DNA of 64,000 nt from an uncultured Bacilli bacterium (lineage in GTDB: Bacteria; Bacillota_I; Bacilli_A; RF39; UBA660): the NCBI GenBank assembly GCA_934182615.1, contig CAKPRO010000009.1, forward strand, positions 5,282 through 69,281, written 5' to 3'. Every line of letters starts with the position of its first letter. The first letter of the stretch is position 1. A program made the position numbers and the translations under genes. Of the stretch, positions 2,067 through 46,024 are shown one piece after another. Under the pieces are notes generated by a model. The model searched no databases. It was not told the origin of the DNA and saw only the letters and a list, made by a program, of their open reading frames with translations.

Positions 2067-2131
2067 ATGAGGAAGACTAATCTTAGGCTTACTCATTTTA
2101 TGATAGAGACAAAATTACTTGGCTCTATCAT
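2067..2131 (+). repeat. Tandem AGAC...GGCT hairpin pair (copy a)
   Basis: Hairpins atgaggAAGACtaatcttAGGCTTactcat (2067-2096) and atgatagAGACaaaattacttGGCTctatcat (2100-2131). Lies 3' of the amidase gene. Confidence 0.7.
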
Positions 2132-2208
2132 ACCACGGAAAACATAAACTTGTTTATGGTTAAAGTGGAATAAGAAAAAAGAAAATATATGGTTATATAC
2201 TTTCTATG

Positions 2209-3591
2209 TTATCTTACTATTAGTATTTGACCTATTGATAATAAATTTGATTTTAGATTGTTTAACTGTTTTAATCTATCAACAGTAGTATCATATTTTT
2301 TGGCTATACTATATAGTGAATCACCTTTCTGAACGGTGTAAGTTGTCTCTAGGTTGGTATCTGTTGGTATTAGTAATACTTGACCTATTGATAGTAAATT
2401 AGTTGTTAGATTATTTAAATCTTTTATTTTATCAATGGTAGTAGAATATTTTCTGGCTATACTATATAGAGAATCGCCTTTTTGAACTGTATAACTAATG
2501 GTATTTTCTTCCTTCTCTACATCGCTTACTTTATCACTTGGTAATTTTAATACCTGACCAATACTTAGAATATTACTTGTTAAGTTATTGATTCTCTTTA
2601 GTTCATCAACGGTAGTATTATATTTATTGGCAATTGAATATAGGGAATCGCCTTTCTTTACAATGTATGTTGACTCTGGTAATAATGCACTTGGTATTTT
2701 TAGTAATTGTCCAGTTGATAGAATATTGGATGTTAAGTTATTGATTCTCTTTAATTCATCCACGGTTGTATTATTAGCCATGGCAATTGAGTATAAGGTA
2801 TCTCCTTTTTTGACTATGTAGATATTTTCTTCTTCTTCATATATTTCTTTAGTTGGAATACGAAGTACCTCTCCTATTTGTAATGTATTTGTTGTTAAGT
2901 TATTCTCTTTTTTTAGTTCTGAAACAGTAGTACCTAATTTATTTGCTATGCTATATAGTGAATCGCCTTTTTGAACAACATAGGTATTGGTTGTTATTCC
3001 CCCTGGTGGTGTGTATGGTACTCCTATATAGTTTGCTACTGCTGATATGACGGCTTCTGCTAGTTCTTTATAGTTTTCTTTTAGGAATTCGACATCTTTG
3101 GTATCGTCAATAAAGCCATACTCGACAATTAGTGGTTCTAGATTGCCAGTATTTCGATGTATGAAATAGTAGTCTTTAGAGGTGTCACTTGGTAGTCTTC
3201 TTTGGTAGTATTTTCTTGTTTCTTGTCCAGCGGCTCCTATGTTTTCTAGTATTCTTTTAGCTAGGGTATCTCTATTTCTTAGAGCATAGATGACTTCGGC
3301 TCCTTCGCCGCCTCCTGAATTAACATGGTTTGATATTAGTATAACATCAGAGGAGTTACCAAACTTATTTAAAATAGTATTTACTCTATCAGTTGGAGAT
3401 AATGTGGTATCTGAGTCTCTTGTTATAGCCACTGGTATTCCTAACTGTTTAAATCTATCATACATATATTTGGATATTAATAGATTATAGTCTTTTTCTA
3501 ATAAATTATTGCCTGTAGCACCAGAATCCGTACCACCGTGACCTGGGTCAATTATTACTTTACGAACCGCTCTATCTTCATTATTATTCAT
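2209..3591 (-). CDS. N-acetylmuramoyl-L-alanine amidase (Amidase_3) with five C-terminal LysM repeats
   Basis: IIDPGHGGTDSGA and NHVNSGGGEGAEV amidase motifs, then 5x Y.V.KGDSLYSIA...L...NNL...L.IGQ.L.IP. Start chosen at the ATG after SD aaggtga. Confidence 0.9.
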   Translation of the reverse strand: MNNNEDRAVRKVIIDPGHGGTDSGATGNNLLEKDYNLLISKYMYDRFKQLGIPVAITRDSDTTLSPTDRVNTILNKFGNSSDVILISNHVNSGGGEGAEVIYALRNRDTLAKRILENIGAAGQETRKYYQRRLPSDTSKDYYFIHRNTGNLEPLIVEYGFIDDTKDVEFLKENYKELAEAVISAVANYIGVPYTPPGGITTNTYVVQKGDSLYSIANKLGTTVSELKKENNLTTNTLQIGEVLRIPTKEIYEEEENIYIVKKGDTLYSIAMANNTTVDELKRINNLTSNILSTGQLLKIPSALLPESTYIVKKGDSLYSIANKYNTTVDELKRINNLTSNILSIGQVLKLPSDKVSDVEKEENTISYTVQKGDSLYSIARKYSTTIDKIKDLNNLTTNLLSIGQVLLIPTDTNLETTYTVQKGDSLYSIAKKYDTTVDRLKQLNNLKSNLLSIGQILIVR

Positions 3592-3651
3592 AGTTATCAC
3601 CTTCAAAGTAGTATATGTAAATAATGTTAATTTGGTTAACTTGACTAGTAT

Positions 3652-3686
3652 AAAAAGATACTAATTTTACTTTTTAGTATCTTTTT
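3652..3686. terminator. Bidirectional hairpin terminator
   Basis: Stem aaaaagatactaa / ttagtatcttttt, flanked by an A-run and a T-run. Lies downstream of the receiver-domain gene. Confidence 0.6.
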
Positions 3687-3771
3687 GATATTTAATTTAT
3701 AGCGGTGTTATTTACATATAATTTATAACCATTTTAATTCTTTACATACTAGTTCTACTTCTTCATTATTG

Positions 3772-5503: not shown

Positions 5504-6493
5504 TTACTTATAATAACATTTTATTATTTTGTCAAAATATTCATATATTGATTTTAATAGTTCATTATTAGTATAATACTCACTATGGTAATTTATTCTT
5601 CCATAAAATAAATCTTTAATATCATTTGTAACATTTTCTTTTACTCCATTACTTGTTACTATTTCATTAAACATATAAAGCGTGTATGTTATCTGCCTTA
5701 TTCGTGAATTTTTCAATTTATTAGTTCTCATTTCTTTTTTGATACCACAAAAGTTTAAGTAATTAACCACTTTATAATCAGGTGAATATTGATTATCTTT
5801 CTTATCAAGTTCACATAACACGCAAGAATTATGTGCAACTGCATTTCTTAGTTTTACTATTTCCCTTAGAATAAATACATTTTTACTTTCTTCTGCTAAC
5901 TTGTATTCTTTAGAGAAAAACTCATAAAAGTTTACTAGTTCTCCAAATGTGATAACTTCAAGAAATTCCCATATAGGTATATTTTCCAATTTCTTATCTT
6001 TATCAATATCATATTTAGAAAATATTTTTTGATAATAATCGCTTCCTACTTTTTTAAATATACTATTATGTACTTTTTTGGGAAATTTATCGTCGTTAAA
6101 ATCTTTTTCTAAATACATATTTACTATTCTATATCCATCTTCTTCATTTATATCTTCTATTAAATTTAATATTCTAATTTTTAAATAATGTTCAATATCT
6201 ATTATCATTTTAAATAAAACTAATCTTACCCTGTGATCAATAATCGCTAAATCTTTAAGATATGCGAAATCTAAATCAACATATTTATCTACAAACTCTC
6301 CATTAATTAAATATCTTTCAAAATTATGTTTATAAGATGTTAAATTATAATAGTTATTGTTGTCTTTTAAATATTTTTCTGCTTCTTGTTCTGATATTAG
6401 TTCAAACTTAATATTTTTATTTTTTAGATATGGAACCATATCTGTTATTTTTAACATAGGCTTTAATGTTTCTATATTATTACCATTAATCAT
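5504..6493 (-). CDS. Abi_2 family (AbiD/AbiF-like) abortive-infection protein
   Basis: N-terminus ...VPYLKNKNIKF..SEQEAEKYLKDNNNYYNLTSY and C-terminal LRNAVAHNS (Rx4H, HEPN-type), as I recall for the Abi_2 family. Confidence 0.75.
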   Translation of the reverse strand: MINGNNIETLKPMLKITDMVPYLKNKNIKFELISEQEAEKYLKDNNNYYNLTSYKHNFERYLINGEFVDKYVDLDFAYLKDLAIIDHRVRLVLFKMIIDIEHYLKIRILNLIEDINEEDGYRIVNMYLEKDFNDDKFPKKVHNSIFKKVGSDYYQKIFSKYDIDKDKKLENIPIWEFLEVITFGELVNFYEFFSKEYKLAEESKNVFILREIVKLRNAVAHNSCVLCELDKKDNQYSPDYKVVNYLNFCGIKKEMRTNKLKNSRIRQITYTLYMFNEIVTSNGVKENVTNDIKDLFYGRINYHSEYYTNNELLKSIYEYFDKIIKCYYK

Positions 6494-7842: not shown

Positions 7843-8226
7843 TTTTTATCATCTCCTATACTTTTCAATTACAATATTATAATAAAATAGATTTAATTAA
7901 ATCTAATCGATAATATAATTATATCACTAAAAAGAGACTTTTCCATGAAGTACTTTACATTTTATAGATTTTTATTTATTATACCATTTATACAATTGCA
8001 TTGATAGAACAAATAACTTGGTGGATTAGAATCAATTACTACTTTATGTATCACTCTTAAACAATAATGTGCATATGCTCATTCTTTATATCGGTACTTT
8101 TATGTTTTTTTATTACTTCTAAATTAAGAATACTACTTCCATGATATACATAGTTCATATTTATTTTTCCTCTCTACTTCAACTTGATTGTATCATATTA
8201 ATTATTATATACAACTTAATATTTTT

Positions 8227-8283
8227 AATCTAGAGACTATATAATAGGATCTAAATTACCTCACGGGGCTTAGGCTTAAGAGG
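8227..8283 (+). repeat. Tandem hairpin pair (copy b, partly degenerate); core of a ~90-bp direct repeat with 13830-13927
   Basis: tctagagactatataataggatctaaattacctcacggggcttaggcttaagagg aligns with copy c at most positions. Confidence 0.7.
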
Positions 8284-8303
8284 CTAAAGAAAAAGAGACT
8301 CTT

Positions 8304-13740: not shown

Positions 13741-13860
13741 TAATTTAAGTATATCATAATTTTAATAATTTATATGTTGTATTTAATTATTTTTACAGTA
13801 TTTTGACATTTTATATGTAATTTGTTATTACTTATATATAATACAACATAATATTTTTAA

Positions 13861-13915
13861 TTTAGAGACTATATAATAGGCTCTAAATTACCTCTTAAGA
13901 CCTAGGCTTAAGAGG
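13861..13915 (+). repeat. Tandem AGAC...GGCT hairpin pair (copy c)
   Basis: Hairpins tttagAGACtatataataGGCTctaaa and cctcttaAGACctaGGCTtaagagg, directly 3' of the VanZ gene. Confidence 0.75.
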
Positions 13916-13942
13916 ATAAAGAAAAAAATAACATAGAATATA

Positions 13943-15034
13943 TTAATCTACATTATTTACTTTTATAGTACTTACATACTTTATATTTAATACTTTGTCA
14001 TATAGTAATTGTTTATTTTTTAATAATTTTATAAAACTATATATATAGAAAATTATAAATATTATAAATGTATTTAATCCTATTATTACTAATAGATAAT
14101 TAGGTATATTTTTAGCTAATAATACTTCTAGATGTATCACTAGTGAAAATATTCCATAGTAGTATAGATAGATAAAGATATTTCTTAAAGTTATTCTAAG
14201 TAATCTCTTATCTGGTACTTCTAATGATACATTTATTATTTTTCCAAAGATAGTTTGGTTATGATTAAAATATGGAATGATAATAAAGTAAAGAACCGCT
14301 AGTGAAAGATTTATATATTTATTATTTATTAAAAATGATACTAGCATTATCATTAGTAGATAGATAAAGATATCTCCTATAAAGAGTGTTATTCTTCTTA
14401 AGGAAGATACTTTTTGTCCTTCTTTTAATGATTTGGTATCGATATCTTCTCTTGTTGGTAAATGTTTTTGGATAGGACTTATTATTAAATATCCCAGAAG
14501 ACCTCCTAGTGTGTTTATTAATAGGTCATCCACATCAAAATTACGATATGCTCTAGGATAGATATAATATAGTCCTGTTAACTGAGTTAATTCAAAGAAT
14601 AGTGATATTAAGAAACTTATAATTATTGTTTTCTTTAATGAACATTTATAGTAGTATCTTAGATAGACTCCTAATGGCATAAACATTATTATATTAAAGA
14701 TAACAGTATATATACTAGGTATAGTTATTATTTTTAGAATGTTTATTTGTTTTAATTCTATTAGGTCCTCTACTATATCTTTTATGAATGTTAATGGAAT
14801 TAACTGAGGATTAATCACTTTCATTTTGATTACTTCTTCTTTGGTTGGAAGAGGTAATATTACTAAAAAGTAGATTGTTATTAGATATAAGATAAAGGAA
14901 TATATTATTAAAGTTCTTAATTTGTTTACTGATCCATAATGATGATATTCATATATTATATATGGTAATGTTATTAATAAGGCTAAAAAAGGAAAGATTA
15001 TTAAAGCTGTTTTTATTGGTACTAAATAGCTCAT
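13943..15034 (-). CDS. VanZ-family membrane protein with an extra C-terminal TM region
   Basis: FELTQL...FDVDDLLINTLGGLLGY VanZ-type motif. Multiple hydrophobic segments. Confidence 0.7.
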   Translation of the reverse strand: MSYLVPIKTALIIFPFLALLITLPYIIYEYHHYGSVNKLRTLIIYSFILYLITIYFLVILPLPTKEEVIKMKVINPQLIPLTFIKDIVEDLIELKQINILKIITIPSIYTVIFNIIMFMPLGVYLRYYYKCSLKKTIIISFLISLFFELTQLTGLYYIYPRAYRNFDVDDLLINTLGGLLGYLIISPIQKHLPTREDIDTKSLKEGQKVSSLRRITLFIGDIFIYLLMIMLVSFLINNKYINLSLAVLYFIIIPYFNHNQTIFGKIINVSLEVPDKRLLRITLRNIFIYLYYYGIFSLVIHLEVLLAKNIPNYLLVIIGLNTFIIFIIFYIYSFIKLLKNKQLLYDKVLNIKYVSTIKVNNVD

Positions 15035-15035
15035 C

Positions 15036-17099
15036 TTATCTCTCCTTTATTATGGTTTTACTACAGTAGTACGTTACTAAGAAATATCCTCCATAGATTA
15101 CTACTAGAAATACTGCTGTTAATATTATTGATGATAATAATGATTCTGTTCCCATTGTTTTTAAGATATAGTTAGCAAACTCTATTCCAAATATTGAGTG
15201 AATTATAGCTAGTAATAATGGGAATAGGAAGAATACTGCTATCTGTTTAAATAAGGCTTTGTTAATCATTTTCTCATCAGTTCCTATTTTTCTTAACATA
15301 TTAAATCTTTCTTTATTATCAGTACTTTCTGATAATTCTTTTAAGGCTAAGATGGCCGCACTTGATATTAAGAAAATTATTCCTAGATATAGTCCTACAA
15401 ATGTTACCATGGCTCCTAGTCCTATGGATGATGCATAGATATCTATTTTAGTATTATATGATAATAAGGTATCTTTGTTAAAATGGTTATTTATTATAGT
15501 ACTAACTATATCTTCAACATTTTCTTTTTCTTCTTTAGTGTCTGCTTGATAGTTAGCTGCTAAAATATTTTTATATGGATGAATACCTTCTAAGGCATTA
15601 TCTGGTAATATTATTACTCCTGTATTAGTAGCACTTCCACTTAGTTCGATAATGCCATCTTGACATTCTTGATATTTTGGATAGTAGTTTTTACTATTTA
15701 TAGTTAGTTTGGTATTATTTTTTAAGGCTATATTTCGAATGTCCGCCATCATCTTATAGTTAGATATAATTACATATTCATTATCTTTTAGAGTTAATTC
15801 TTTTTTGTTATATAGTTTTGCTAGACGATTGTAGTCACTTAATTTTACTAAGTCTTCTCTTACGTTATAAGCTAGTGTGGGATAATCTTTTCCTATTTGT
15901 TCTATTTGGTCTCCAAAAGAATCTTTTAGGGTTATTTCTTCTACTCGATATGTATTTATATCTACTACATCTTTTAGATACTTGTATACATCTAATCTTT
16001 GTAAGGTATCTTTGACAGTGGTGTTATAATCCTCTATTATCTCTTTTGAAAAGTTTTCTTGTTCTTCTTTAGATAATGGTTCTTGTAATTTTGAGAACTG
16101 AATATCAACAGGTGCTAAATCTTTTAGATTACCTGATAGAGAGTTTTTTATAGATAATGCTGATGAAAAGATACATATAGTAAAGAATAGCATTAGGCAT
16201 ATTATTGTCATTGAAAAGACAGTGGTATTTATTTTGCTACTTATTTGACGAACGGTAAAACTATTTAGTCCTTTATAGTAGTATTTTTTTAGATGCATTA
16301 CTATCTTTAGAATTAGACCTGATAGTGACCAAAATATTAGAAATGTTGATACGCATCCTAGGGCTATAGGCAACAATATTCCTCTTATGGTATTCATTAG
16401 TGGTGAAGAGCTAAATCCATCTGTTACTAGATAGTAAGCGTATGATAGTGCTATAACAGCAATTATGAATACTATAGTGCAAATGATAGGATTTTTTAAT
16501 TTTACTTTTTCGGATTTTTTATTACCATGTAATAGATCTATTAGTTTACATTTATTTACAATTATGGTGTTAAATATCATTACTATTAGATACATTATGC
16601 TAAAGTATAATAAGGTTTTTAGGGCCGCTGATGATGAAAATGTAAACTGGAATTTTGTTAAGTCGGCTTCAAACATATTGGCTACTAAGATACTCATTAG
16701 TTGTGATAAAACTATTCCTAGGGCTAAGCCAACTCCTAAAGAGATAACTCCTATTATAAGAGTTTCAAAGAAAAGGATTAGAGATATTTTTCTTTTGGAC
16801 ATTCCTAAGGTTAAGTAGATTCCAAATTCTTTGTTTCTTCTTTTTATGAGAAAACGACTGGCATAGATTATTAGAAATCCTAGAATGAATGAAACAAAGA
16901 CACTTACTCCTCCTAGGATGGTTGTCATTAGTCTTATTATTTCACTTGTTGATGATGATACATTTAGCATTACTGTTTGACTATCTATGGCATTGAAGAC
17001 GTAGAAGATGGCTACTCCTAGTACTAGGGTAAAGAAATAGATGGCATAATCTTTGATACTTTTGGTTATGTTTTTTATAGACAATTTAAAGAGCATCAT
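15036..17099 (-). CDS. BceB-type ABC permease (FtsX-like, large extracellular loop)
   Basis: 687 aa with multiple TM segments either side of a ~200-aa hydrophilic loop. Overlaps the ATPase gene. Confidence 0.85.
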   Translation of the reverse strand: MMLFKLSIKNITKSIKDYAIYFFTLVLGVAIFYVFNAIDSQTVMLNVSSSTSEIIRLMTTILGGVSVFVSFILGFLIIYASRFLIKRRNKEFGIYLTLGMSKRKISLILFFETLIIGVISLGVGLALGIVLSQLMSILVANMFEADLTKFQFTFSSSAALKTLLYFSIMYLIVMIFNTIIVNKCKLIDLLHGNKKSEKVKLKNPIICTIVFIIAVIALSYAYYLVTDGFSSSPLMNTIRGILLPIALGCVSTFLIFWSLSGLILKIVMHLKKYYYKGLNSFTVRQISSKINTTVFSMTIICLMLFFTICIFSSALSIKNSLSGNLKDLAPVDIQFSKLQEPLSKEEQENFSKEIIEDYNTTVKDTLQRLDVYKYLKDVVDINTYRVEEITLKDSFGDQIEQIGKDYPTLAYNVREDLVKLSDYNRLAKLYNKKELTLKDNEYVIISNYKMMADIRNIALKNNTKLTINSKNYYPKYQECQDGIIELSGSATNTGVIILPDNALEGIHPYKNILAANYQADTKEEKENVEDIVSTIINNHFNKDTLLSYNTKIDIYASSIGLGAMVTFVGLYLGIIFLISSAAILALKELSESTDNKERFNMLRKIGTDEKMINKALFKQIAVFFLFPLLLAIIHSIFGIEFANYILKTMGTESLLSSIILTAVFLVVIYGGYFLVTYYCSKTIIKER

Positions 17100-17853
17100 T
17101 TATGTCTCCTCCTAGTAAGGTTACGACATCTATTATTTTATCAAAGAATTCTTTTCTGGTATCATTTCCTTTACGAATTTCGTTATATATTTTACCATCT
17201 TTTATGAAGATTATTCTAGTAGCGTAACTTGCGGCATAAGCGTCATGAGTTACCATTAGAATAGTGGCTCCTAAAGCATTATTTAGGTAGGTTAGTTTTT
17301 CTAGAAGCATTTTTGATGACTTAGAGTCTAGGGCTCCAGTTGGCTCGTCTGCGAGTACTAAGCATGGATTTGTTATTATGGCACGAGCTGCTGCTACTCT
17401 TTGTTTTTGTCCTCCACTCATTTGGTAAGGATATTTTTTTAGTACTGATTCGATATCTAGTTCTTTTGCTACTTTCTTTATTCTTTTATCTATTTCTTTG
17501 GGACTTACATTTTGAATTGATAAGGCTAGTGCTATATTTTCATAGGCTGTTAAGGTATCTAATAAATTGAAGTCTTGAAAGATGAAACCTAAGTCTTCTC
17601 TTCTAAACTTGTTTAAATCATTTCCTTTTAGTTTTGTTATGTCAGTTCCTCCTACGAAAATATGTCCGGCGGTTACTTTATCAATTGTGGATATGCAGTT
17701 TAGTAATGTTGTTTTACCTGAACCTGAAGAACCCATGATAGCGACAAACTCTCCTTTTTCTACTTCAAATGATATGTTATCTATGGCTTTAGTTAAACTT
17801 GATTTACTTCCATAGTATTTTTCAATATTTTCTATTTTTAGTATATTTTCCAT
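17086..17853 (-). CDS. BceA-type ABC ATPase
   Basis: Walker [10 protein letters not shown], signature MSGGQKQR, Walker B LVLADEPT. Confidence 0.9.
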
Positions 17854-17943
17854 ATTATTTTCCTTCCTTTCGTAATTAATAATACTAGATAATAGGATAT
17901 TTGTCGTAAGTTTAATATTACAGTATATTACTTTTTTGTAAGG

Positions 17944-18963
17944 TTAGTCTTCTGGGTGATAAAGTTTATTTTTACCAAAGGTTATTTTGACAATGGTATA
18001 TTCTTTTTCTTCAGATTCTATCTCTATTTTATGGCCTAGTTTGGTACATAATTTTTTGGCTATGTATAGACCCATGCCTGTTGATTTAATTTTATCTCTG
18101 CCATTAGTACCGGTAAATGATTTTTTGAAAACATTTGGGATATCACTTTTTGGTATGCCAATACCGTTATCTTTGATAAATAAGGTTATTTGACTATTAT
18201 CTTCAGTAGCTTTTATTTGGATATAGGAGTTTGGAATATCTTTTTTGTATTTGATGCTGTTATTGATAATTTGATTTAAAATGAATTCTAACCATTTGGT
18301 ATCGGTATAGACTTCGGTATTTTTTATATCGACGATTAGGTCAATTTTATTTTCTAAGAGGTCATCTTTATTTTTAAGGGCTACTGATGAGATTATTTTT
18401 TCTAGTTTTACTTTTTTGAAGATAAAGTCTTCACTGGTATAGTTACTTCTTACATAATAGAGGATTTGGTCGATGTAGTTATCTAGTCTTTTTATTTCTT
18501 CAATGTATTCTTTTGGTACTTGATTTTTATGATTATGGGTCATAAGTATTAGACTTGATATTGGTATTTTTACTTCATGTATCCACATCTCAATATAATC
18601 TTTGAAGTCTTTGGTGCTATTTATGTAACTACTGACATTTTCAATCATTGATTTGTTTATGTCGCACATGACGTTATATATTAATTCTTCTTCGTAAGTA
18701 TTTGGTTTTGGTATGGTTTCTAGGACTAGGTATTTTTTATCTAGATTTTCGGTATTGGTTATGATGGTGTTATAGAAGGTTCTTTTTTGGAAATATGATA
18801 TTAAGAGGGCTATGATTAGTGTTAGTAGTAGTAATACTATGGTTACTATTATTAGTCCCTCTGGTACTTTGAAGGCTATGTCTAATAGGGTTATTAGAAT
18901 TATTGATATGATAGTGATAATGATTATGGTTATTTTATCTTTTAGATAGTTTGTTAATTTCAT
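17944..18963 (-). CDS. BceS-like intramembrane-sensing histidine kinase
   Basis: Two N-terminal TM segments with almost no loop, H-box HEVKIPIS, and a G-box DNGIGI...GMGLYIAKK. Confidence 0.85.
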   Translation of the reverse strand: MKLTNYLKDKITIIIITIISIILITLLDIAFKVPEGLIIVTIVLLLLTLIIALLISYFQKRTFYNTIITNTENLDKKYLVLETIPKPNTYEEELIYNVMCDINKSMIENVSSYINSTKDFKDYIEMWIHEVKIPISSLILMTHNHKNQVPKEYIEEIKRLDNYIDQILYYVRSNYTSEDFIFKKVKLEKIISSVALKNKDDLLENKIDLIVDIKNTEVYTDTKWLEFILNQIINNSIKYKKDIPNSYIQIKATEDNSQITLFIKDNGIGIPKSDIPNVFKKSFTGTNGRDKIKSTGMGLYIAKKLCTKLGHKIEIESEEKEYTIVKITFGKNKLYHPED

Positions 18964-19622: not shown

Positions 19623-19935
19623 ATATTATACTTCCTTCTTTCTATAGTTATATTATATCATTGTTTTAATTGGTTTTATATTACAAGTTTGTAAGGTAGA
19701 AGAAAAAGACTTAGTACATCTTTGTGATGTGGGTAAGTCTTTGGTTTTTGTGAGAAGTCCGTAATGCACAAATCATATCTATCTGATTTTTTACTATTCT
19801 GTCCTTTCAAAATTAACTTTTTAAAATATGTAGTTAAAAAAGTATAATTTTGTATAATAAAATTCAACATAATTTTGCATATAAACTGTACAAATAGTAT
19901 AAAACAATACTTTGTCTACATAAATATATATTTTT

Positions 19936-20076
19936 TTAATCAAGATCCTTTGGCGTTTCGGATAATTCAGAATTTAATATTTCATAAAATCTTTCTCCAA
20001 ACGGTGTTATGTTATCTTTTTTATTATTGTCTTGAGTATCTTTAAATGCTTTTATTAAGTTTCGTATTAAACACAT
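19936..20076 (-). CDS. Small ORF, 46 aa (MCLIRNLIKAFKDTQDNNKKDN...), paralogue of 29668-29847; may be a remnant
   Basis: Below the ORF-track cutoff; translated by hand. The N-terminal ~21 aa are shared with the second copy. No clear SD here. Confidence 0.3.
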   Translation of the reverse strand: MCLIRNLIKAFKDTQDNNKKDNITPFGERFYEILNSELSETPKDLD

Positions 20077-20122
20077 AGTCTCGTCAACTCTGAATTTTAG
20101 TTACCTATATTAAATTTTTATG

Positions 20123-25635: not shown

Positions 25636-25864
25636 CACCACCTGAAGTTATTATATCATAGTTTTTTTCCATATATGACTATATGATTATTTTTCTAATT
25701 CTATTTATATAATACTATTTCTCTATACTAAAATAATATTAGTATATAGTTATTGCTTATATATAATAGATGTAATAGGCATATTGTTATTAGACCCTAG
25801 GCTAATAACAACACTAATAAGACTTACATAGTAAGGCTTATAGTGAACATAATAAAATATATAT
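25636..25864 (-). repeat. Junction element J2: hairpin pair + extended -10 promoter + SD (direct repeat of 29853-30079)
   Basis: Aligns end to end with J3; the first 32 nt and last 45 nt are identical. TGaTATAAT on the minus strand (25650-25658). Hairpins at 25786-25809 and 25812-25855. Confidence 0.85.
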
Positions 25865-29603: not shown

Positions 29604-29667
29604 TTTCTTTAACTAATTTAAGTATATCAAATTATTTTTATTTAATCAATATATTTTGACAATTTTC

Positions 29668-29847
29668 TTATTCATCATCCTCAGAATAATAGTCATCATC
29701 TTCTAGTTCTTCTTCTTCAAAGTTAAATGAATCATACTTCTTTTCTTTTACTAATTCTTTTTGCCAATCTTCTAAATCATTATTATCTTTTTTATTATCA
29801 TCTTCTGTATCAGTAAATGCTTTTATTAAGTTCCATATTAAACACAT
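29668..29847 (-). CDS. Small acidic ORF, 59 aa (MCLIWNLIKAFTDTEDDNKKDN...EEEELEDDDYYSEDDE)
   Basis: Below the ORF-track cutoff. SD aggtggtg lies 7 nt upstream, and the junction promoter is directly upstream. Confidence 0.4.
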   Translation of the reverse strand: MCLIWNLIKAFTDTEDDNKKDNNDLEDWQKELVKEKKYDSFNFEEEELEDDDYYSEDDE

Positions 29848-29852
29848 AGTCT

Positions 29853-30079
29853 CACCACCTGAAGTTATTATATCATAGTTTTTTGTTATATATGACTATA
29901 TGCTTATTTTTCTACTCTTATTTATATAATTACTTCTCTATACTAAAATAATATTAGTATATATATCTACTGCTTATATATAATAGGTATCTTGGATACA
30001 TTTAATTAAGACAAGTTTACTTGGCTTAATTAAACACTAATAAGACTTACATAGTAAGGCTTATAGTGAACATAATAAA
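29853..30079 (-). repeat. Junction element J3 (complete copy): hairpin pair + TGnTATAAT promoter + SD
   Basis: See J2. Extended -10 at 29867-29875 (minus strand). Hairpins at 30001-30034 and 30035-30068. Confidence 0.85.
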
Positions 30080-30125
30080 GATAATATATAGGTATATTAA
30101 AACTAAGACTTGATATCTTAGTTTG

Positions 30126-30929
30126 TTATTTAGTTAATGTTAATGTTTTTATTTTAAATTCTTTAGTATCATAACCCCATGGATTAGATACTAATCTTAT
30201 ATTATTTATTATTATATCTTCTTCTTTATGATCATGACCATATATCCATACTGGTGATTTATATTCTTTAACTTCTGTATAGTAACAAGAGTTATTACCC
30301 CTACTATTACTTTTGTTTCTAAATGGTGGTACATGTGTTATTATTAAATCTATATTATTTGGTAAGTTATTATACCAAGATATGCTATCGTTATGTAGTT
30401 TTTGTATTTTATCTTTCTTAGATAATTCTGATAAGATAAATCTTGAATCATTCTGCATAGGATAGTTATATAGTTTATCTACTAATGTTACTGGTTTATA
30501 CCAAAGGGTATCTCCCGCTAATAAGAAGGTATTATAGGTATATAGTCCTTTAGTATTATTCGTTTTATCTAGTATGATTATATCGTTATTATCTTTAAAT
30601 ATTTCATTTAATCTATATACTTTATTCATACTATTATAGTTATATTCTTTAGCCATAGGATCAGTATAGATATATTTTATTACTGGTATATAGTATTCAT
30701 GATTACCTAGGACAAATATTACTTTTTTATAGTATTTTGAACATGAATATAATAGTTCACTCACTCTATTTATATCTTCATCGATATCTCCCGCTACTAC
30801 AAGGATATCTCCTTTTACTTGCATACTTATTTTATCTTGAACTAATTTATCTATTTTGGTTATGCTTTCATTTTTACTTATGTAGTGAGTTAAGTGTAAA
30901 TCAGATACGTAGTCAATGTTTAATTCCAT
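30126..30929 (-). CDS. Calcineurin-like metallophosphoesterase
   Basis: SDLHL, VVAGDI, LGNHEYY, THVPP and YGHDH motifs in the canonical order. Confidence 0.8.
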   Translation of the reverse strand: MELNIDYVSDLHLTHYISKNESITKIDKLVQDKISMQVKGDILVVAGDIDEDINRVSELLYSCSKYYKKVIFVLGNHEYYIPVIKYIYTDPMAKEYNYNSMNKVYRLNEIFKDNNDIIILDKTNNTKGLYTYNTFLLAGDTLWYKPVTLVDKLYNYPMQNDSRFILSELSKKDKIQKLHNDSISWYNNLPNNIDLIITHVPPFRNKSNSRGNNSCYYTEVKEYKSPVWIYGHDHKEEDIIINNIRLVSNPWGYDTKEFKIKTLTLTK

Positions 30930-33590: not shown

Positions 33591-33839
33591 AAATATCCCT
33601 CCATTTATAATATATTATAGTTTTTTACTTTTGTCAATTGTTTTTACACTATAAGCCATTTGTCTTGCTAGTGTTATTTGGAGTCTTGGGTCTCCAAATA
33701 AGTATTAATTATACTTATTATATATAAGTATGAAATATATACTTAAAGTAGTTTATTATTGGTATTTTTTTTGTTATTTTGAGTATAATAATAATGCAAT
33801 ATACTTGACTTTTTATAATAGTTATAGTATCATTGTATT

Positions 33840-33954
33840 ACCGGAGAGAAATCTCGTCAGGTCGATAGCTCAATGTCGATTTTATTAAATTAAGTGTATG
33901 TTAAGTACACCGCTTGAGTTGGGGAGAGACTACTAGATAGTCTCTTTTCTTTTT
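33840..33954 (+). ncRNA. Candidate ~110-nt small RNA convergent with the DUF3800 gene
   Basis: TTGACT-17 nt-TATCAT (33805-33833), then agagacta/tagtctct hairpin plus tttcttttt (33925-33954). No plus-strand ORF downstream. Confidence 0.25.
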
Positions 33955-34681
33955 ATGGAAATAATAGTTTATGATCGATAATATCAATATCAGAATCAAT
34001 ATTTGATAATGCTCTTCTTCTGGTAGTGCCTGCTATTAAATCTGCTGCTTGCACTAAGTAACTCTTACCTGAATCTTGATATGTTAATCTTATTTCTAAT
34101 TTTCCATATAATATATTTTTATATTTTATATCATAATTAAAATTAGATATTCCATGTAGTAATTCTTCAGTTAGGCCATCTTTTAAATTATAATAACCAT
34201 TACTTTTTGTAGATTGTTCATCTATATTTATTATTAATCTCACATTTTTATGTGGGTTTATTTTTTTATCTTTTATTAATTCTTCTATGGTACTTTTAAT
34301 TAGTCTTCTTATTGTGTAATCTATGTATCTTCCTTTTGATGCTTTATTATTTATAATATGATTATATACTTTTGTATTATTTATTACTAGGGCAATAGTA
34401 TAATATTTACTTATGTAGTTCATAAGTCTTCTTTTATGACCTTTCTTGATATTTGTATTTTTTATTTCTTTACATTTTTTAGTACATTCTCCTTTTGTTT
34501 GTCCGCAGTAGGAACATTTTATCTCATTTATTATTTGGCGATACTGAGTTATAAATTTATCTTTTTCTTGTTTTGATAAAAAGACTATTCCTGCATATAC
34601 TGATACTTTTTCTTTTTTTGTTAATTTACCTGAATCATCTAAATTTATATATATTTCTTGATATTCTTCTTTTTTGTTCAT
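33953..34681 (-). CDS. DUF3800-family protein
   Basis: N-terminal IYINLDDSGKL and C-terminal LVQAADLIAG match the DUF3800 signature as I recall it. Start after SD gaagggag. Confidence 0.65.
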   Translation of the reverse strand: MNKKEEYQEIYINLDDSGKLTKKEKVSVYAGIVFLSKQEKDKFITQYRQIINEIKCSYCGQTKGECTKKCKEIKNTNIKKGHKRRLMNYISKYYTIALVINNTKVYNHIINNKASKGRYIDYTIRRLIKSTIEELIKDKKINPHKNVRLIINIDEQSTKSNGYYNLKDGLTEELLHGISNFNYDIKYKNILYGKLEIRLTYQDSGKSYLVQAADLIAGTTRRRALSNIDSDIDIIDHKLLFP

Positions 34682-34830
34682 ATAAGTGCTCCCTTCAATT
34701 GTTTTAATGTTTATTATAGCATGTACTTTTAATATTGTCATTAGGTTTTAAGTAATTTTGTTTATCAACAATATATGTGGATATAAGAAAAACTATAGAC
34801 ATAAATCTATAGCTTATATAAATACTTTTA

Positions 34831-34912
34831 TTTCAGAGCCATTTGGCCCAGTAAATATTTTTGAAAGACTTTTGGCTTTCAAAAACCTCAAACAATGTAA
34901 TGTGAGAGGGAT
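34831..34912 (+). repeat. Hairpin pair + GAACAA..GTGTGAGAGG box (copy f, first hairpin degenerate)
   Basis: tttgaaAGACttttGGCTttcaaa (34860-34883). About 90 nt aligns with 40193-40280. Confidence 0.7.
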
Positions 34913-34915
34913 ATA

Positions 34916-40174: not shown

Positions 40175-40200
40175 TATTTTTTATATTATATATACTTTTA

Positions 40201-40277
40201 TTTCAGAGACATTTGGCTCTGAAATTTTTTTGAAAGACATTTGGCTTTCAAAACCTCGAACAACATAGTGTGAGAGG
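40201..40277 (+). repeat. Hairpin pair + GAACAAC..AGTGTGAGAGG box (copy g)
   Basis: tttcagAGACatttGGCTctgaaa (40201-40224) and tttgaaAGACatttGGCTttcaaa (40229-40252). Box at 40256-40277. Confidence 0.75.
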
Positions 40278-40338
40278 AATATAATTTTTTATTATATTTT
40301 TATTATTTTGGTTCATAATATTTTTGAGGAGGATATTT

Positions 40339-42651: not shown

Positions 42652-42654
42652 ATG

Positions 42655-42707
42655 CCACTTCAGCCTATAGTCTTACGTGGTAAATTAGAGCCTGTAGTCT
42701 CTAATTT
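42655..42707 (-). repeat. Hairpin pair (copy h, the only copy in inverted orientation)
   Basis: The reverse complement aaattagAGACtacaGGCTctaattt accacgtaAGACtataGGCTgaagtgg aligns with copy c. Overlaps the stop of the 42706 gene. Confidence 0.7.
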
Positions 42708-43776
42708 AGTTATTTGGTTTTAATGTTTTAGTTTTATTGTTACTTAGTAAGGTATCTTTAAATATATTGATATCTTCTAGTAAAGTGTCTAAAGATTCTT
42801 TATTTAATTTTATATTTATTATTTTTAGTGAATCTTCTAGTGAATATCTATTATTTAATAACGATTCATTTAATTCTTCTATTTGCTTTAAGAAGTTGGA
42901 ATCTTTTTTATATTCTATATAATTATATAGTGAGAAAATAGCTACTGAGTAGTGTAATATTATAAACATAATATTTTGATTATTTATTCTTTCTTTATCA
43001 AATACTTCTAATGATGTTCGATAATTATCGTCATGATATAATAATTTATAATTTTCTTCAGATACTTTTCCAAGTAAATAGTAAAGTAAAGTTATTCTTA
43101 TGATATGGAAGCCTTGATTTATAATGCTATAAAAATTATTATACTCTGATATTTTAAATGTATTTACAGCTTCTTGATAGCCAATACCTTCTAAATAATC
43201 AGCATAAATTAGTTCTTCAGTAAAGGCAAGTAGTTCAGTCAAAATATCATTTACTTCTCCTCTTTTTATAGATGGTTGATTTCGGTAATGAGATATTTCA
43301 TGAACCCATATTATTGAATCAGTTACTAAATCATTATTATAAACATTTATTGCTTTATGATAAGTAGTATCTACTACTACTCGCTCTTGTGTTCTAATAT
43401 TGATATAACATTCTTCATGAATAATATAATTATTGTTGCCAGTGTATATTTCTTTATAGGTTGCTTTTTTAGGATTATTAGTACTTATTATGTTAAGTAC
43501 TCCGCTACTTGCTATTTCTTCCATTCTAAAGTCTATTCCTATATTTTTATAAAAAGCATCAATTAATTTTGACTTTGCCATATAATCAGCACGAGCACCA
43601 TCTCTCAAATCTAATTTTTCTACATCTAAACTATCCATATTGTAGTATAGAAAGGATATTAATTTATAAATATTTGACATATTATTAAATAATAATTTAT
43701 TTCCATTATAGGTAGCATCAAAAAAACTTTTTAGAAAGGTATTTGTAGATGCCTCAATATCAACTTTTTCTTTCAT
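42706..43776 (-). CDS. HExxH zincin (M3-like) protein
   Basis: IIWVHEISHY, followed by Glu residues about 22-29 aa downstream. Confidence 0.5.
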   Translation of the reverse strand: MKEKVDIEASTNTFLKSFFDATYNGNKLLFNNMSNIYKLISFLYYNMDSLDVEKLDLRDGARADYMAKSKLIDAFYKNIGIDFRMEEIASSGVLNIISTNNPKKATYKEIYTGNNNYIIHEECYINIRTQERVVVDTTYHKAINVYNNDLVTDSIIWVHEISHYRNQPSIKRGEVNDILTELLAFTEELIYADYLEGIGYQEAVNTFKISEYNNFYSIINQGFHIIRITLLYYLLGKVSEENYKLLYHDDNYRTSLEVFDKERINNQNIMFIILHYSVAIFSLYNYIEYKKDSNFLKQIEELNESLLNNRYSLEDSLKIINIKLNKESLDTLLEDINIFKDTLLSNNKTKTLKPNN

Positions 43777-43784
43777 CGTTTATC

Positions 43785-44834
43785 CTACTTTCTTTTTTTT
43801 ACTTTTATTTTGGCTAGTTCTTCAGTAATATCACTATATAGTTCTTTTTGACTTTGATAGTAGGCTTCGATTATATCTTTATTACTTTCATATATTCTTG
43901 TAGTTATATCTATGTATTCTCTATCTTCACTTGGGGCTGTTACTGCATCAGTTAATGTTGCAAGTACTTTTTTATTTTTCTTTTGTTTTGGTAGTATGTG
44001 AATATCTCCTGCTGCTGATGTATCTATTAAGATATTTTCTTTTATACTACTTGGTTTGTATATTCTAGATTGAGTTGGATCTAAATAATATGTATCTCCT
44101 TGGTAGACTGCTGTTGTTATCCTATGGTTACCGATTAAAGTTAATTTTTTATCTTTTTTAGGAATAATATACTCATAATATTTATTTAGTTCTTCTTCAT
44201 ATTGATATACTAAATCTAAAAAAGAAATGTTTGTTCTTTGGTGTTCGTTATGAATTTCTTCTAGCAGACTTAGCATATTTTCTACATTATCTTGCATTAC
44301 ATCAAAATCACTTTGATATACAGTTAAAGTATTTCCTTCTATTCCATAAGCATTATATATTTCTTTTAACATAGTAGCTATATGACGACATACTGCTTCA
44401 CCATTTATTATATTTGAAAAATAGATACCATCAATATCTCTAACTGTTTTTTCTCCAAAATCAAATTCTTTATTTTTAGATAAATAACCATCATGTAACA
44501 TCTTATCATAAAATGTATATATCTCTATAGGGTTTTGAAATTCAAATATTCTATTTAATTTTACATATTCGGAAAGAAATTCTTGATAAAGAGCTTTTAT
44601 TTTTTGAACTTCTTTAGTATGTGATTCTGAATTTCTTGAAAATATTGCATAACTAACATTTATAATATTTGCTCCTAGTAACAAAAGACTTGCTAATAAA
44701 CTATCACTTATGTTAGGTAAAAGAGATGTTCCTATTCCACATGACATGATTGCTATAGTATTAGCTTTAGATATTATTTCATTAGTATTATAACTTATGT
44801 TTCCATATATTTTATCTTTTAAATTATCTCTCAT
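43785..44834 (-). CDS. Membrane-anchored transglutaminase-like cysteine protease-fold protein (paralogue 2)
   Basis: GEAVCRHIA (Cys), GNHRITTAVYQG (His), YYLDPTQ (Asp). N-terminal TM pair. Confidence 0.6.
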   Translation of the reverse strand: MRDNLKDKIYGNISYNTNEIISKANTIAIMSCGIGTSLLPNISDSLLASLLLLGANIINVSYAIFSRNSESHTKEVQKIKALYQEFLSEYVKLNRIFEFQNPIEIYTFYDKMLHDGYLSKNKEFDFGEKTVRDIDGIYFSNIINGEAVCRHIATMLKEIYNAYGIEGNTLTVYQSDFDVMQDNVENMLSLLEEIHNEHQRTNISFLDLVYQYEEELNKYYEYIIPKKDKKLTLIGNHRITTAVYQGDTYYLDPTQSRIYKPSSIKENILIDTSAAGDIHILPKQKKNKKVLATLTDAVTAPSEDREYIDITTRIYESNKDIIEAYYQSQKELYSDITEELAKIKVKKRK

Positions 44835-44835
44835 A

Positions 44836-45864
44836 TTATCTTTTTTCCTTTCTCTTTACTTTTATATTTGACAATAGATTTGATATATAATTATATAGTT
44901 CTTGATGTTCTTTATAAAATCTTTCTAATATATCTTTATTTTGTTTATAAATATTAATAGTACTTTTGACATATTTTAAATCTTCACTAAATGGTGTTGA
45001 TGGATTTATTTTCATTTCTTCTGGTAAATTTGCTCTTGATATTATTTTAGTATCTCTTCGACCATCTTCAGATACTAAGAGATTAGGGGTGTTATTACTT
45101 GGTTTATACATTCTTGTTTGAGTGGGATCTAAGTAATAATCTTTTCCTTGGTAAACGGCTTTAGTTATACGGTGATTAGTTAAATTCCCTATATCTTTTG
45201 GATCTATATAGTAACTAAAGACCTCCTGTATTTTATCTTCAAGTAAGTAGGTTAAGTCTTCTAATGGGATACCTTTTATTATACTTATTTTTTGTAATTC
45301 TCTTTGATAATAGGCTAACATTCCTTCATCTATTTTAGTGTCTTTTTGAAATACACTAATATCATAACTTGTTATACCATAGTCTAAATAAATATCTTTT
45401 AACATTGGGGCTATATGACGACATACGGCTTCACCATTTATTACATTTGCTCCTTGAATAGTCATTATATCTTTAACTTTATCTTTTCCAAAATGGAATT
45501 CTTTATCTTTAGATAAATATCCAGCATATAGCATTTTATTATACAATGTATATATTTCTACAGGATTTTGAAAGCCAAATATTTTATTTAGTTTATTATA
45601 GTCTTTTATTAAATCATTATATAGGCTTTTTATTTCTTTGATATCTTTTGTATGTAATGATAGTTTTTCTCCATTACTATATATATAATATATCATATTT
45701 AATATACTTAACATCATTAATGAGGCGGCGTTATTTAAGTTTACTCCTAGTGAGAAGAAGCCTGTACCAAATGTTGTTAACATTAGGCCTAGATTTACAT
45801 CACTTATTAATTCACTAGTATTATAATTTATATTACTATATATTTTCTTTATTATTTTATCCAT
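44836..45864 (-). CDS. Membrane-anchored transglutaminase-like cysteine protease-fold protein (paralogue 1)
   Basis: GEAVCRHIA, TNHRITKAVYQG and YYLDPTQ. Clearly homologous to the adjacent gene. Confidence 0.6.
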   Translation of the reverse strand: MDKIIKKIYSNINYNTSELISDVNLGLMLTTFGTGFFSLGVNLNNAASLMMLSILNMIYYIYSNGEKLSLHTKDIKEIKSLYNDLIKDYNKLNKIFGFQNPVEIYTLYNKMLYAGYLSKDKEFHFGKDKVKDIMTIQGANVINGEAVCRHIAPMLKDIYLDYGITSYDISVFQKDTKIDEGMLAYYQRELQKISIIKGIPLEDLTYLLEDKIQEVFSYYIDPKDIGNLTNHRITKAVYQGKDYYLDPTQTRMYKPSNNTPNLLVSEDGRRDTKIISRANLPEEMKINPSTPFSEDLKYVKSTINIYKQNKDILERFYKEHQELYNYISNLLSNIKVKRKEKR

Positions 45865-45946
45865 AACAATTCCCCTTCATATGTGCTGGGTATTATACCA
45901 TATATTATTAGAAAAAGCAAATTTTTGTTTGCTTATGATAAAACTT

Positions 45947-46024
45947 AATTTAAAGACTTTGGCTTTAAATTACTATAGAAAGACCTTAGGCTTTCTATAG
46001 CAGTGAACAACGAAGTGTGAACTC
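45947..46024 (+). repeat. Hairpin pair + GTGAACAACgaAGTGTGAAC box (copy i)
   Basis: aatttaaAGACtttGGCTttaaatt (45947-45971) and ctatagaaAGACcttaGGCTttctatag (45973-46000). Confidence 0.75.

Follow-up and report, generated by a model that had tools for sequence, protein, structure and literature searches.

A clade-restricted family of tandem-hairpin repeats at joints between gene modules in an uncultured gut Bacilli species

Background

What are the paired hairpins that recur along the gene island in this DNA, and do they take part in the gain and loss of its modules? The window, a 64-kb stretch from an uncultured Bacilli bacterium, had previously been examined in a sequence-only reading. Nine copies were described, each a pair of adjacent hairpins with an AGAC..GGCT top, and they were taken to mark nearly every module boundary and to resemble structure-specific recombination sites such as integron attC. 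Here, we describe the structure, distribution and placement of the element, and weigh the explanations that could account for it.

Results

Structure of the element

The element consists of two adjacent hairpins set 0-2 nt apart, with an 8-bp stem in hairpin 1 and a 7-bp stem in hairpin 2. Both are capped by AGAC-NNNA-GGCT, in which the 4-nt loop ends in A and the A.G mismatch of the AGAC/GGCT tip is invariant. Stem lengths are fixed, loop preferences are present across the hairpins, and the tip is exact in 202 of 208 hairpins. A third, looser hairpin often lies 3' of hairpin 2; the tips of third hairpins co-vary with the A.G mismatch retained, and in three copies the GAACAAC-NN-AGTGTGA box forms the loop. 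Stem sequences are free to vary, yet they co-vary: 99.6% of cells are paired vs 69% in shuffles, and double-change cells number 242 vs 66 (0/500 shuffles). Orthologous copies in different species likewise have stems that differ but stay complementary. This covariation supports conservation of structure and agrees with the earlier view that variable stems under a conserved tip are unlike classical REPs. G.T pairs are not favored in the stems (17 G.T/1456, vs 8 A.C and 40 other mismatches), and good folds were obtained for either strand (z about -5). A search for a conserved flank motif around the copies found A/T composition only, and no fixed promoter signal was found at a set distance upstream. 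Because the tip, with its obligatory mismatch, is invariant while the stems are free, a specific partner protein is implied.

Copies in the window

AGAC-N3-12-GGCT occurs 21 times in the window vs 3.6 expected by chance; the largest count in 100 shuffles was 8 (0/100 reached 21), and 13 of the 21 tops have 7-8 bp complementary arms alongside. A covariance model, R1, was derived from 42 copies that lie in other genomes and then run on the window. It recovered all nine copies that had been noted, at 17-62 bits on the strand given for each and with much lower scores on the opposite strand, and the sequence at all nine positions is as had been described. Two further copies were added, at 33645-33703 (-) and 62688-62749 (-) (Table 1).

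Table 1. Tandem-hairpin elements and an associated terminator in the window
Feature	Position	Strand	Evidence	Context and remarks
Element	2064..2133	+	R1 24.5 bits, E 7e-4	Behind 3' end of amidase/LysM gene (2209-3606, minus)
Decayed copy	8224..8285	+	R1 17.1 bits	Top GGAT; hairpin 2 disrupted; paralogous to 13856-13917
Element	13856..13917	+	R1 61.7 bits	Abuts canonical terminator of VanZ-ABC-two-component module (13943-19622, minus)
Element, long-looped hairpin 2	25782..25847	+	R1 44.7 bits	Within 242-bp connector repeat
Element	29999..30070	+	R1 33.7 bits	Abuts terminator of metallophosphoesterase gene (30126-30929, minus)
Element, absent from earlier list	33645..33703	-	R1 39.1 bits	Hairpin 1 top AGAC..GACT
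Element + third hairpin (34887-34912)	34827..34912	+	R1 36.8 bits	Hairpin 1 decayed to AGCC..GGCC
Element + third hairpin (GAACAAC..GTGTGA loop)	40197..40279	+	R1 61.1 bits	Between HTH gene and HerA operon
Inverted copy	42653..42710	-	R1 53.7 bits	Hairpin-2 side abuts HerA operon terminator
Element + third hairpin	45944..46024	+	R1 61.1 bits	Just past uvrA terminator
Canonical uvrA terminator hairpin	46033..46057	-	Sequence + fold	Followed by T8 on minus strand; separate from element
Element	62688..62749	-	R1 36.5 bits	Between DUF6512 gene and 186-aa gene

In this one window, copy density is 10 in the 44 kb of island vs 1 in the 18-kb core-gene part, whose sole copy is 62688..62749. Several copies have orthologues in related genomes. 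The first adjoins the amidase gene in L161, L162 and L131 as well, L161 holds an intact orthologue of the decayed second copy, and the copy at 33645 is matched in L071 (16187-16247) and in the strains. The copy beside uvrA keeps its position in every clade relative, where its stems differ in sequence but remain complementary. The DUF3800 slot is bracketed head-to-head by 33645..33703 (-) and 34827-34886 (+), the latter preceded at 34786-34826 by a small hairpin and a GCTTATATAAATA box. The inverted copy touches, on its hairpin-1 side, the stop codon of a 356-aa cargo gene.

Three pairs of copies lie in longer direct repeats: 8196-8294 and 13826-13926 (101 bp, 87% identity), 25636-25865 and 29853-30090 (242 bp, 84%), and 34817-34915 and 40187-40283 (99 bp, 87%). 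These pairs had been said to bracket blocks of ~5.3-5.5 kb; the repeats are real, and the middle block is ~4.0 kb. The statement that nearly every module boundary carries an element was too strong, as elements are lacking from two of them, at 19.6-20.1 kb and at 21.8-22.2 kb.

Distribution of the family

An Rfam 15 search of the window found nothing overlapping the elements even at E<=10, the sole match being DUF3800-I at 33833-33957. The element had 106 matches in 601 kb of clade DNA (~25 of them non-ascertained copies), none in 1.24 Mb of sister-species DNA (75 species) and one in all the viral contigs searched. It recurs in about 20 MAG species near 'Firmicutes bacterium CAG:321', at a frequency of roughly one copy per 20-25 kb in clade genomes. 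The copies are a previously undescribed, clade-restricted family of structured intergenic repeats.

Placement relative to genes and terminators

Each of the 65 distinct copies inspected lies between genes, at a distance of 5-45 nt from the 3' end of a gene, and both orientations occur. Some copies begin 0-5 nt past a stop codon, and others lie between divergent genes or upstream of promoters. Element copies occupy the gap between the canonical terminator of one unit and the promoter of the next, and in 34 of 101 cases the copy adjoins the outer side of a canonical terminator, vs 15% for random positions. Core genes are also flanked by copies, including SecA, RuvB, Lon, SMC and an RNA polymerase large subunit (Rpb1-domain match).

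Stable hairpins near gene 3' ends could be ordinary intrinsic terminators that share a tip sequence by chance, a highly improbable reading that the data already contradict. A Rho-independent terminator is a GC-rich hairpin with a U-tract directly behind it on the transcribed strand, and no T-run follows these hairpins on either strand. At least a third of copies have a separate canonical terminator between them and the gene, the copies between divergent genes or upstream of promoters do not fit, the tip is invariant and strand-specific, and the sister species, which still need terminators, lack the element. The lack of a T-run and the usual position past a canonical terminator, as at uvrA, thus uphold the earlier judgment that the copies are not merely terminators. 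The companion claim, that orientation is independent of the flanking gene, fails: terminator-abutting copies are about 3:1 antisense to the abutted gene, with about a quarter in the other orientation.

This bias, together with the position directly past terminators, favors an RNA-level role, which we regard as possible at a low level of confidence. The hairpins or their complement would serve as an insulator or processing signal in read-through or run-in transcripts, where a tip-bound protein would stop or degrade the RNA; in a variant, a small RNA would extend from hairpin 1 to the neighbor's bidirectional terminator. The terminators of uvrA, VanZ and HerA do look bidirectional, both strands of the element fold well, and compensatory stems at orthologous sites suggest a host function. 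Tandem hairpins with invariant tips also resemble the targets of dimeric RNA-binding proteins. ANTAR targets are similar in that a dimeric protein binds two small adjacent hairpins whose stems vary and whose tips have conserved positions; they differ in having hexaloops (A1, G4) and in lying in 5' leaders, where they overlap a terminator, whereas the element combines tetraloops with an A.G mismatch and occurs past terminators, facing either way. Against an RNA-level role are the missing T-run, the quarter of terminator-abutting copies in the other orientation, the lack of a conserved promoter at fixed distance, the copies 0-5 nt past a stop codon and the mismatch tally, in which G.U is not preferentially tolerated. 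It would also leave unexplained the cassettes bracketed by duplicated copies, described below.

Gain and loss of modules at the element

Between species and between strains, an empty site holds one element and a filled site two in direct orientation. The 34.9-40.2 kb block is missing from L071 and L122, where one element stands at the junction, and L001 and CAKOLH carry an extra four-gene block with an element on each side at the position of the 40197..40279 copy. At the VanZ site, strains have VanZ, one element and a 568-aa gene, or VanZ, cassette A or cassette B between two elements, and a 559-aa gene. Either cassette enters on the hairpin-1 side of the 13856..13917 element together with a second copy, and four strains lack exactly the two-hairpin unit there. 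In L086, a different cassette lies on the hairpin-1 side of the 29999..30070 copy, with homology to the window from 29934. Cargo between the 42653..42710 and 45944 copies differs in every species and many strains, cargo between inverted copies encodes DUF3800 or HExxH / C-H-D proteins, and many of the variable modules at elements are anti-phage. Comparison of strains and species therefore ties the copies to differences in gene content, with whole blocks gained or lost between two elements, as had been anticipated.

In pairs of orthologous copies, 59-84 synteny breaks fall on the hairpin-1 side, which faces genome-variable DNA, vs 4-8 on the hairpin-2 side, which is tied to a conserved neighbor, an asymmetry to be expected in part from the shorter distance between the element and its hairpin-2-side gene. 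Breakpoints are concentrated within 0-60 nt of hairpin 1, several junctions being 0-5 nt from it, and one inter-species segment of high identity (96% vs 79-83%) ends inside an element.

Polarity of this kind, junctions close to hairpin 1, the segment ending within an element and the exchange of cassettes A and B between direct copies would fit an integron-like system, in which folded single-stranded hairpins would be the site of a structure-specific recombinase and modules would pass in and out at the hairpin-1 edge. A conserved mismatch that is asymmetric is also the kind of feature on which strand-selective recognition of hairpins would depend. We nevertheless consider such a system quite unlikely. 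The 64-kb window has no integrase or HUH gene, in keeping with the earlier remark that no integrase is visible; no recombinase recurs near ~100 copies (101 flanking gene clusters), and tblastn of 929 kb of element-centered DNA returned core XerD-like genes and no other integrase. Duplications around inserted blocks are of variable length and reach 45-125 nt past the element on both sides, taking in the terminator, a VanZ 3' fragment and ~125 nt of promoter, which points to homologous recombination. The cassettes bring their own promoters and terminators, and copies beside core genes are positionally stable, with presence of the element itself varying at only 1 of 13 sites across about 24 strain loci. 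None of 11 strains has an element at the most variable island junction, the one beside the response regulator at 19622, and most within-species variation there and near uvrA/HerA occurs without one.

Comparison with known repeats and recombination sites

Integron attC sites and cassette arrays, including CALINs, share with the element the conservation of structure over sequence, modules separated by a site, one copy at an empty site and two around an insert, polar linkage to one neighbor and defense-rich cargo. An attC site is one long imperfect hairpin of 55-140 nt conserved at its base, with R'' (RYYYAAC) and R' (GTTRRRY) boxes and extrahelical bases, whereas in the element conservation is at the tips of two or three short hairpins, and such boxes are absent. 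It also differs in lacking a nearby IntI, in cassettes with their own promoters and in duplications that extend past the site. Integrons are not known in Bacillota. The proposed likeness to attC thus stands for the conserved structure and for the cassettes between sites, and falls short on the lack of a recombinase in the window or recurrently near the copies, the long duplications and the core-gene copies. In pdif modules of Acinetobacter plasmids, short sites likewise bound modules (including toxin-antitoxin and resistance genes) in many combinations, and hairpin 1 as duplex DNA, at 28 bp, is the size of a dif site; dif arms are conserved in sequence for XerC/D binding, whereas the element has arms that differ between copies but co-vary, implying that they pair within a strand.

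REP and BIME repeats of Enterobacteria and Pseudomonas are also short extragenic hairpins near gene 3' ends, in both orientations and tens to hundreds of copies, often clustered, with a conserved stem asymmetry that sets polarity; they have cognate RAYT (Y1/HUH) transposases, whose genes typically have inverted copies on both sides. The element likewise has numerous extragenic copies that lie close to the 3' ends of genes, in either orientation. It is not a sequence-conserved imperfect palindrome with a 5' GT(A/G)G motif: only the tip is conserved, the hairpins are in direct tandem rather than alternating, and the element lies past the terminator, not inside transcripts. BOX, RUP and SPRITE of pneumococcus, EFAR, bcr1 and Correia are likewise clade-specific intergenic fold-back repeats near stop codons or terminators; they are conserved in sequence throughout, often with terminal inverted repeats and TA duplications, whereas the element has variable arms. 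It has neither the terminal inverted repeats nor the target-site duplication of MITEs (IS630/Tc1-like and similar), microhomology at the two junctions being no greater than in shuffled pairings.

A selfish REP- or MITE-like element moved in trans by a hairpin-binding HUH/RAYT-type transposase, tolerated behind terminators and only incidentally linked to boundaries, is unlikely in our judgment. The dispersed intergenic copies, the recurrent stem families found in different combinations, the decayed copies (8224, hairpin 1 of 34827 and the L122 hybrid), the clean presence or absence of exactly the two-hairpin unit at VanZ, and the lack of a target-site duplication, as with HUH transposition, are what it would predict. 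The stems are far too diverse for copy-and-paste, since 88 copies have 53 hairpin-1 and 40 hairpin-2 stems. Moreover, positions are conserved across species, the flanks have no GTAG-type motif, and no IS200/RAYT-like gene was detected at E<=1 in the 929 kb, a search that could miss distant RAYTs.

Discussion

Our preferred explanation, held tentatively and short of even confidence, is that the elements serve as REP-like punctuation in the DNA, each forming the core of an intergenic connector at which modules recombine. The element would act at the DNA level as a hairpin or cruciform mark recognized by a protein, with a lifestyle like that of REP/BIME. The connector of 100-240 bp (terminator, element, box and promoter/RBS) would supply portable homology, at which modules may be inserted, lost or swapped by general recombination, either through Campbell-type or unequal crossover or through transfer with flanking homology. 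We do not favor cutting inside the element by an integron-type integrase.

A DNA-level role agrees with the intergenic position of all copies in both orientations, the lack of preference for G.T pairs, the lack of a fixed upstream promoter signal and the 34/101 copies that abut a terminator from outside. Portable homology agrees with direct repeats of 99-242 bp at 84-87% identity and with duplications that include terminator and promoter DNA. Pairing kept through different stems in orthologues counts against this explanation, as it argues for a host-level function beyond portable homology alone. Further points against the punctuation and homology explanation are that the searches found no binding protein or transposase, that a purely DNA-level role does not require the ~3:1 orientation bias, and that most variation near uvrA/HerA and the response regulator occurs without the element.

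Conclusions

The host is an abundant human-gut species, a single marker protein of the island being present in 6224 assembly blocks. Nearly every strain has a different version of the island, and many of its joints carry a discrete, readily recognized structured repeat. The finding touches on the open question of how defense islands are assembled outside integron-bearing Proteobacteria. Whether the element turns out to anchor recombination, to insulate modules or to be an analogue of the integron, the covariance model is a handle for mapping module boundaries in uncultured genomes, and the element gives a route to its partner protein via phyletic profiling. It also offers a way of testing hairpin-guided gene exchange in Bacillota. 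The boldest form of this idea, which we think improbable, is that the hairpins are sites of a hairpin-specific, single-strand DNA cassette-capture system, a tip-conserved functional analogue of integrons that would insert modules at the hairpin-1 edge and whose recombinase would be encoded elsewhere in the 1.4-1.5-Mb genomes. If true, such a system would stock the defense-gene array between RNase J and uvrA.

Anatomy of the element

The tandem-hairpin element constitutes a genuine and statistically solid family. All nine copies proposed in the sequence-only reading carry the features described for them, and a covariance model trained only on copies from other genomes recovered all nine, added two further copies (see table), and found no match at 14-25.7 kb or 46-62.6 kb of the window. 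The apex pattern AGAC-N3-12-GGCT occurs 21 times in the window against 3.6 expected, a count reached in none of 100 shuffles, and 13 AGAC..GGCT tops are flanked by complementary arms of 7-8 bp. Scanning species-representative genomes for the pattern gave 118 stretches, from which 65 distinct tandem copies were obtained; the arms were properly paired at every low-GC "uncultured Bacilli/Tenericutes/Clostridium sp. CAG:302" locus and in none of the high-GC chance matches.

Hairpin 1 has a stem of 8 bp and hairpin 2 a stem of 7 bp, separated by 0-2 nt. Most loops have 4 nt (CTTA, TACA, TATA), and about 85% of loops end in A. Among 42 aligned copies, 99.6% of cells were paired (69% in shuffles), double substitutions numbered 242 where 66 were expected, and 13 of 20 pairs covaried. 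The exact tip was present in 202 of 208 hairpins. A third hairpin is common, and its tip pairs covary (GAGAC/GGCTC, GTGAC/GGCAC, GAGAT/AGCTC, GAAAC/GGTTC) while the A.G mismatch is unchanged. The GAACAAC..GTGTGA box, formerly regarded as an addition to some copies, is real, and is recast here as one version of this third hairpin. Stem families of hairpins 1 and 2 reassort among copies; a crossover between the two hairpins was not upheld as the explanation, since AT-rich convergence could also account for the pattern. At about 6400-6470 of the related locus L122, a 5' arm from hairpin 1 and a 3' arm from hairpin 2 make up one hybrid hairpin. Deletion between the two identical tips apparently produced it, which shows a route of copy decay.

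Genomic setting and distribution

The window has a G+C content of 26% and is identical in sequence to MNTB01000030.1 (gut MAG "Firmicutes bacterium CAG:321_26_22"). An accessory and defence island spans about 4 to 46 kb, and genes for a SpoU-family rRNA methylase, RlmN, a PASTA kinase, RsgA and Rpe lie past uvrA. The defence content comprises AbiD, an ApeA-like HEPN protein, a type XI retron RT-protease, type I restriction-modification M/S genes, an OLD/GajA-like ATPase, DUF3800 with its DUF3800-I RNA, and a HerA system; a BceAB-type ABC/two-component/VanZ module, a P-type ATPase and an ABC-F protein are also present. Strain L082 (2970-4420) keeps the DUF3800-I RNA and has a Panacea/MqsA-type antitoxin (325 aa) and a 108-aa gene in place of the DUF3800 ORF; the RNA is therefore not strictly tied to DUF3800.

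Features of the window and their coordinates
Feature	Position	Strand	Remark
RNase J	6-1409		core gene framing the region
LysM amidase	2209-3606		core gene framing the region
Response regulator	18960-19622		
Defence hotspot	19623-25172		hypervariable, upstream of the response regulator
Type XI retron RT-protease	20123-21805		in the hotspot, with type I M/S genes
Decayed remnant	25380-25640		all that follows the RBS in which the 242-bp connector repeat ends
Small acidic ORF	29640-29850		served by the RBS in which the 242-bp connector repeat ends
Element copy	33645-33703	-	added by the covariance model
DUF3800-I RNA	33833-33957	+	Rfam RF02969, 65.6 bits; own promoter and terminator
DUF3800 ORF	33953-34741	-	
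Cargo between inverted elements	42706-45864		356-aa HExxH protein and two paralogous proteins of 349 and 342 aa
uvrA	46054-48912		core gene framing the region
Sigma-factor gene	49573-50154		beyond uvrA
Element copy	62688-62749	-	added by the covariance model

Across 80 uvrA loci, the element is confined to genomes with at least 84% UvrA identity. The covariance model of the element, R1, gave 106 matches in 601 kb of clade DNA and none in 1.24 Mb from 75 more distant species. About 25 of the 106 are non-ascertained, corresponding to roughly one copy per 24 kb. The whole of IMG/VR yielded one match, and a phage or plasmid origin was rejected on this basis; a known RNA family was likewise rejected, as Rfam holds no matching family. 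No description of an equivalent element was found in the literature, and the family is apparently undescribed.

Position relative to terminators and promoters

All copies examined are intergenic, with a gene 3' end 5-45 nt away and the next gene start at a distance of 70-300 nt. Flanking genes were both antisense to the element in 26 cases, both co-oriented in 17, convergent in 9 and divergent in 6. Neither strand has a T-run after the hairpins; the A-rich run past hairpin 2 complements the U-tract in the neighboring gene's own canonical terminator, an arrangement seen at uvrA, HerA, VanZ and the metallophosphoesterase gene and, in other genomes, at many loci. Under a strict scan, a canonical terminator abuts 34 of 101 copies, compared with 15% at random positions; the hairpin-2 side accounts for 29 such contacts and the hairpin-1 side for 9. 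The element thus occupies the gap between the terminator of one unit and the promoter of the next. The proposal that these are not merely terminators is borne out by the missing T-run, the separate canonical terminators and the location outside transcription units.

Orientation is biased about 3:1 antisense to the abutted gene. Relative to the locus-wide majority gene strand the ratio was 21:36, which is too weak to support a tie to the replication strand, and this was rejected. About a quarter of copies have a GCTTATAWWWRATAG box, 12 or 22-23 nt upstream of the element. The flank profile showed no consistent -35 and no fixed -10 register, and some copies begin 0-5 nt past a stop codon, so that designation of the element as a small-RNA gene with its own promoter was not supported and stays only as a rival reading.

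Gene content variation at element sites

Cassette gain or loss at the element, as anticipated earlier, was seen at the VanZ site in a within-species comparison of ten contigs around the VanZ module. The window has VanZ/E/568-aa gene (E, element), four strains have VanZ/E/cassette A/E/559-aa gene, and one has VanZ/E/cassette B/E/559-aa gene. Four VanZ-site alleles lack exactly the two-hairpin unit (...AAATATTTT[TAATTTAG...TAAGAGGA]TAAAG... vs ...AAATATTTTTAAAG...). Presence of the element itself is polymorphic at 1 of 13 sites (about 24 strain loci). The 85-aa ORF closing cassette A (L213 17243-17654, L221 17183-17594) has its 3' end and terminator in common with vanZ and looks like a VanZ 3' fragment duplicated on cassette insertion.

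In the uvrA-HerA operon interval, two head-to-head copies with their hairpin 1 sides inward surround cargo of very variable size. It amounts to about 200 nt in L001 and 2 kb in L002; the window has three genes there, other strains have 2-6, and L071, with a single copy, has none. The 349- and 342-aa cargo proteins have N-terminal hydrophobic segments and a C..H..D pattern, and neither they nor the 356-aa protein matched Pfam or PADLOC. Cargo content and copy number vary among strains through paralogue recombination, one strain carries a DUF7192/AAA_5/311-aa insertion, and strain-level changes near uvrA/HerA mostly reflect recombination between paralogues or at gene borders.

Between species, the block at 34.9-40.2 kb (P-type ATPase and neighbors), bracketed by paralogous copies, is missing from L071 and L122, where one copy stays. 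The L122 junction falls inside the element, and its DUF3800 side is 96% identical to the window compared with 79-83% elsewhere, which indicates a recent transfer. L001 and CAKOLH carry an additional four-gene block between two copies where the window has just 40197-40279, and 3.8-8.1 kb of the window is missing from L161. Across the clade, comparison of orthologous copies in different genomes gave 28-36 pairs with both flanks in common, 59-84 with the hairpin-2-side flank alone and 4-8 with the hairpin-1-side flank alone; part of this asymmetry is expected because the element sits nearer the hairpin-2-side gene. Of 34 informative comparisons between loci that keep the element itself, 24 have homology ending 0-5, 23-32 or 46-61 nt upstream of hairpin 1.

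Recombination and mobility

The three direct-repeat pairs noted previously measure 101, 242 and 99 bp at 84-87% identity. The duplications flanking cassettes A and B exceed the element. They cover the VanZ terminator together with as much as about 75 nt from the 3' part of VanZ, and some 125 nt of promoter/RBS; the 242-bp repeat likewise contains an RBS and promoter. What is repeated is thus an entire intergenic connector built around the element, and its duplication would be the expected product of Campbell-type or unequal homologous recombination. The decayed remnant behind one connector RBS suggests an older segmental duplication.

The earlier remark that no integrase is visible was upheld: the window contains no recombinase, and no recombinase or transposase recurs among 101 flanking gene clusters, which include SecA, an RNA polymerase large subunit (Rpb1-domain match), RuvB, Lon, SMC and UvrD. 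Searching 929 kb by tblastn with IS200 TnpA, Hin and XerD for an associated enzyme returned only core XerD-like genes. Two genomes carry a copy some 110 nt ahead of a gene for a XerD-like tyrosine recombinase (L141 5569-6555, L190 3-682) with 38% identity to E. coli XerD. This is probably core xerD and its adjacency coincidental, and an adjoining transposase or recombinase was rejected. No target-site duplication occurs at the element. The cargo between inverted copies, DUF3800 or HExxH and C-H-D proteins, is not recombinase-like and was rejected as a mobilizing enzyme.

The response-regulator junction holds different defence systems in 10 of 10 strains (loci L213-L222, 1-8230), among them type I and III restriction-modification, ApeA, OLD, GmrSD, Fic, HinfI restriction-modification and SLFN-like helicases, and has no tandem-hairpin element in the strains compared. 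One strain has a Phage_integrase-family gene directly 3' of hsdM (L218 1158-2156), which suggests a phase-variable type I specificity shufflon.

Discussion

The original observation is confirmed and extended. The element resembles REPs in lifestyle and attC in its association with cassette-type variation, and it fails the defining tests for REP, attC and terminator. From the attC-like interpretation, the cassette-type variation at elements stands; against it are the absence of a recombinase from the window and of a recurrent one near copies, the duplications that exceed the element and the hottest junction, which is element-free. We consider such a mechanism possible but improbable, and not the best-supported reading.

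Both strands of the element fold equally well. Among 1456 pairs there were 17 G.T, 8 A.C and 40 other mismatches; the G.T excess over A.C is not significant and other mismatches are commoner, so that the wobble test identified neither a functional strand nor an RNA and G.U is not specially tolerated. A serious rival is that the element acts as an insulator at the RNA level, to which the orientation bias of about 3:1 and the pairing preserved in orthologous copies point. Because G.U is not specially tolerated, no promoter occurs in a fixed register and copies lie beyond terminators, we favor a DNA-level hairpin or cruciform recognized by a putative protein. Its design, an invariant mismatched tip on free stems, is unusual.
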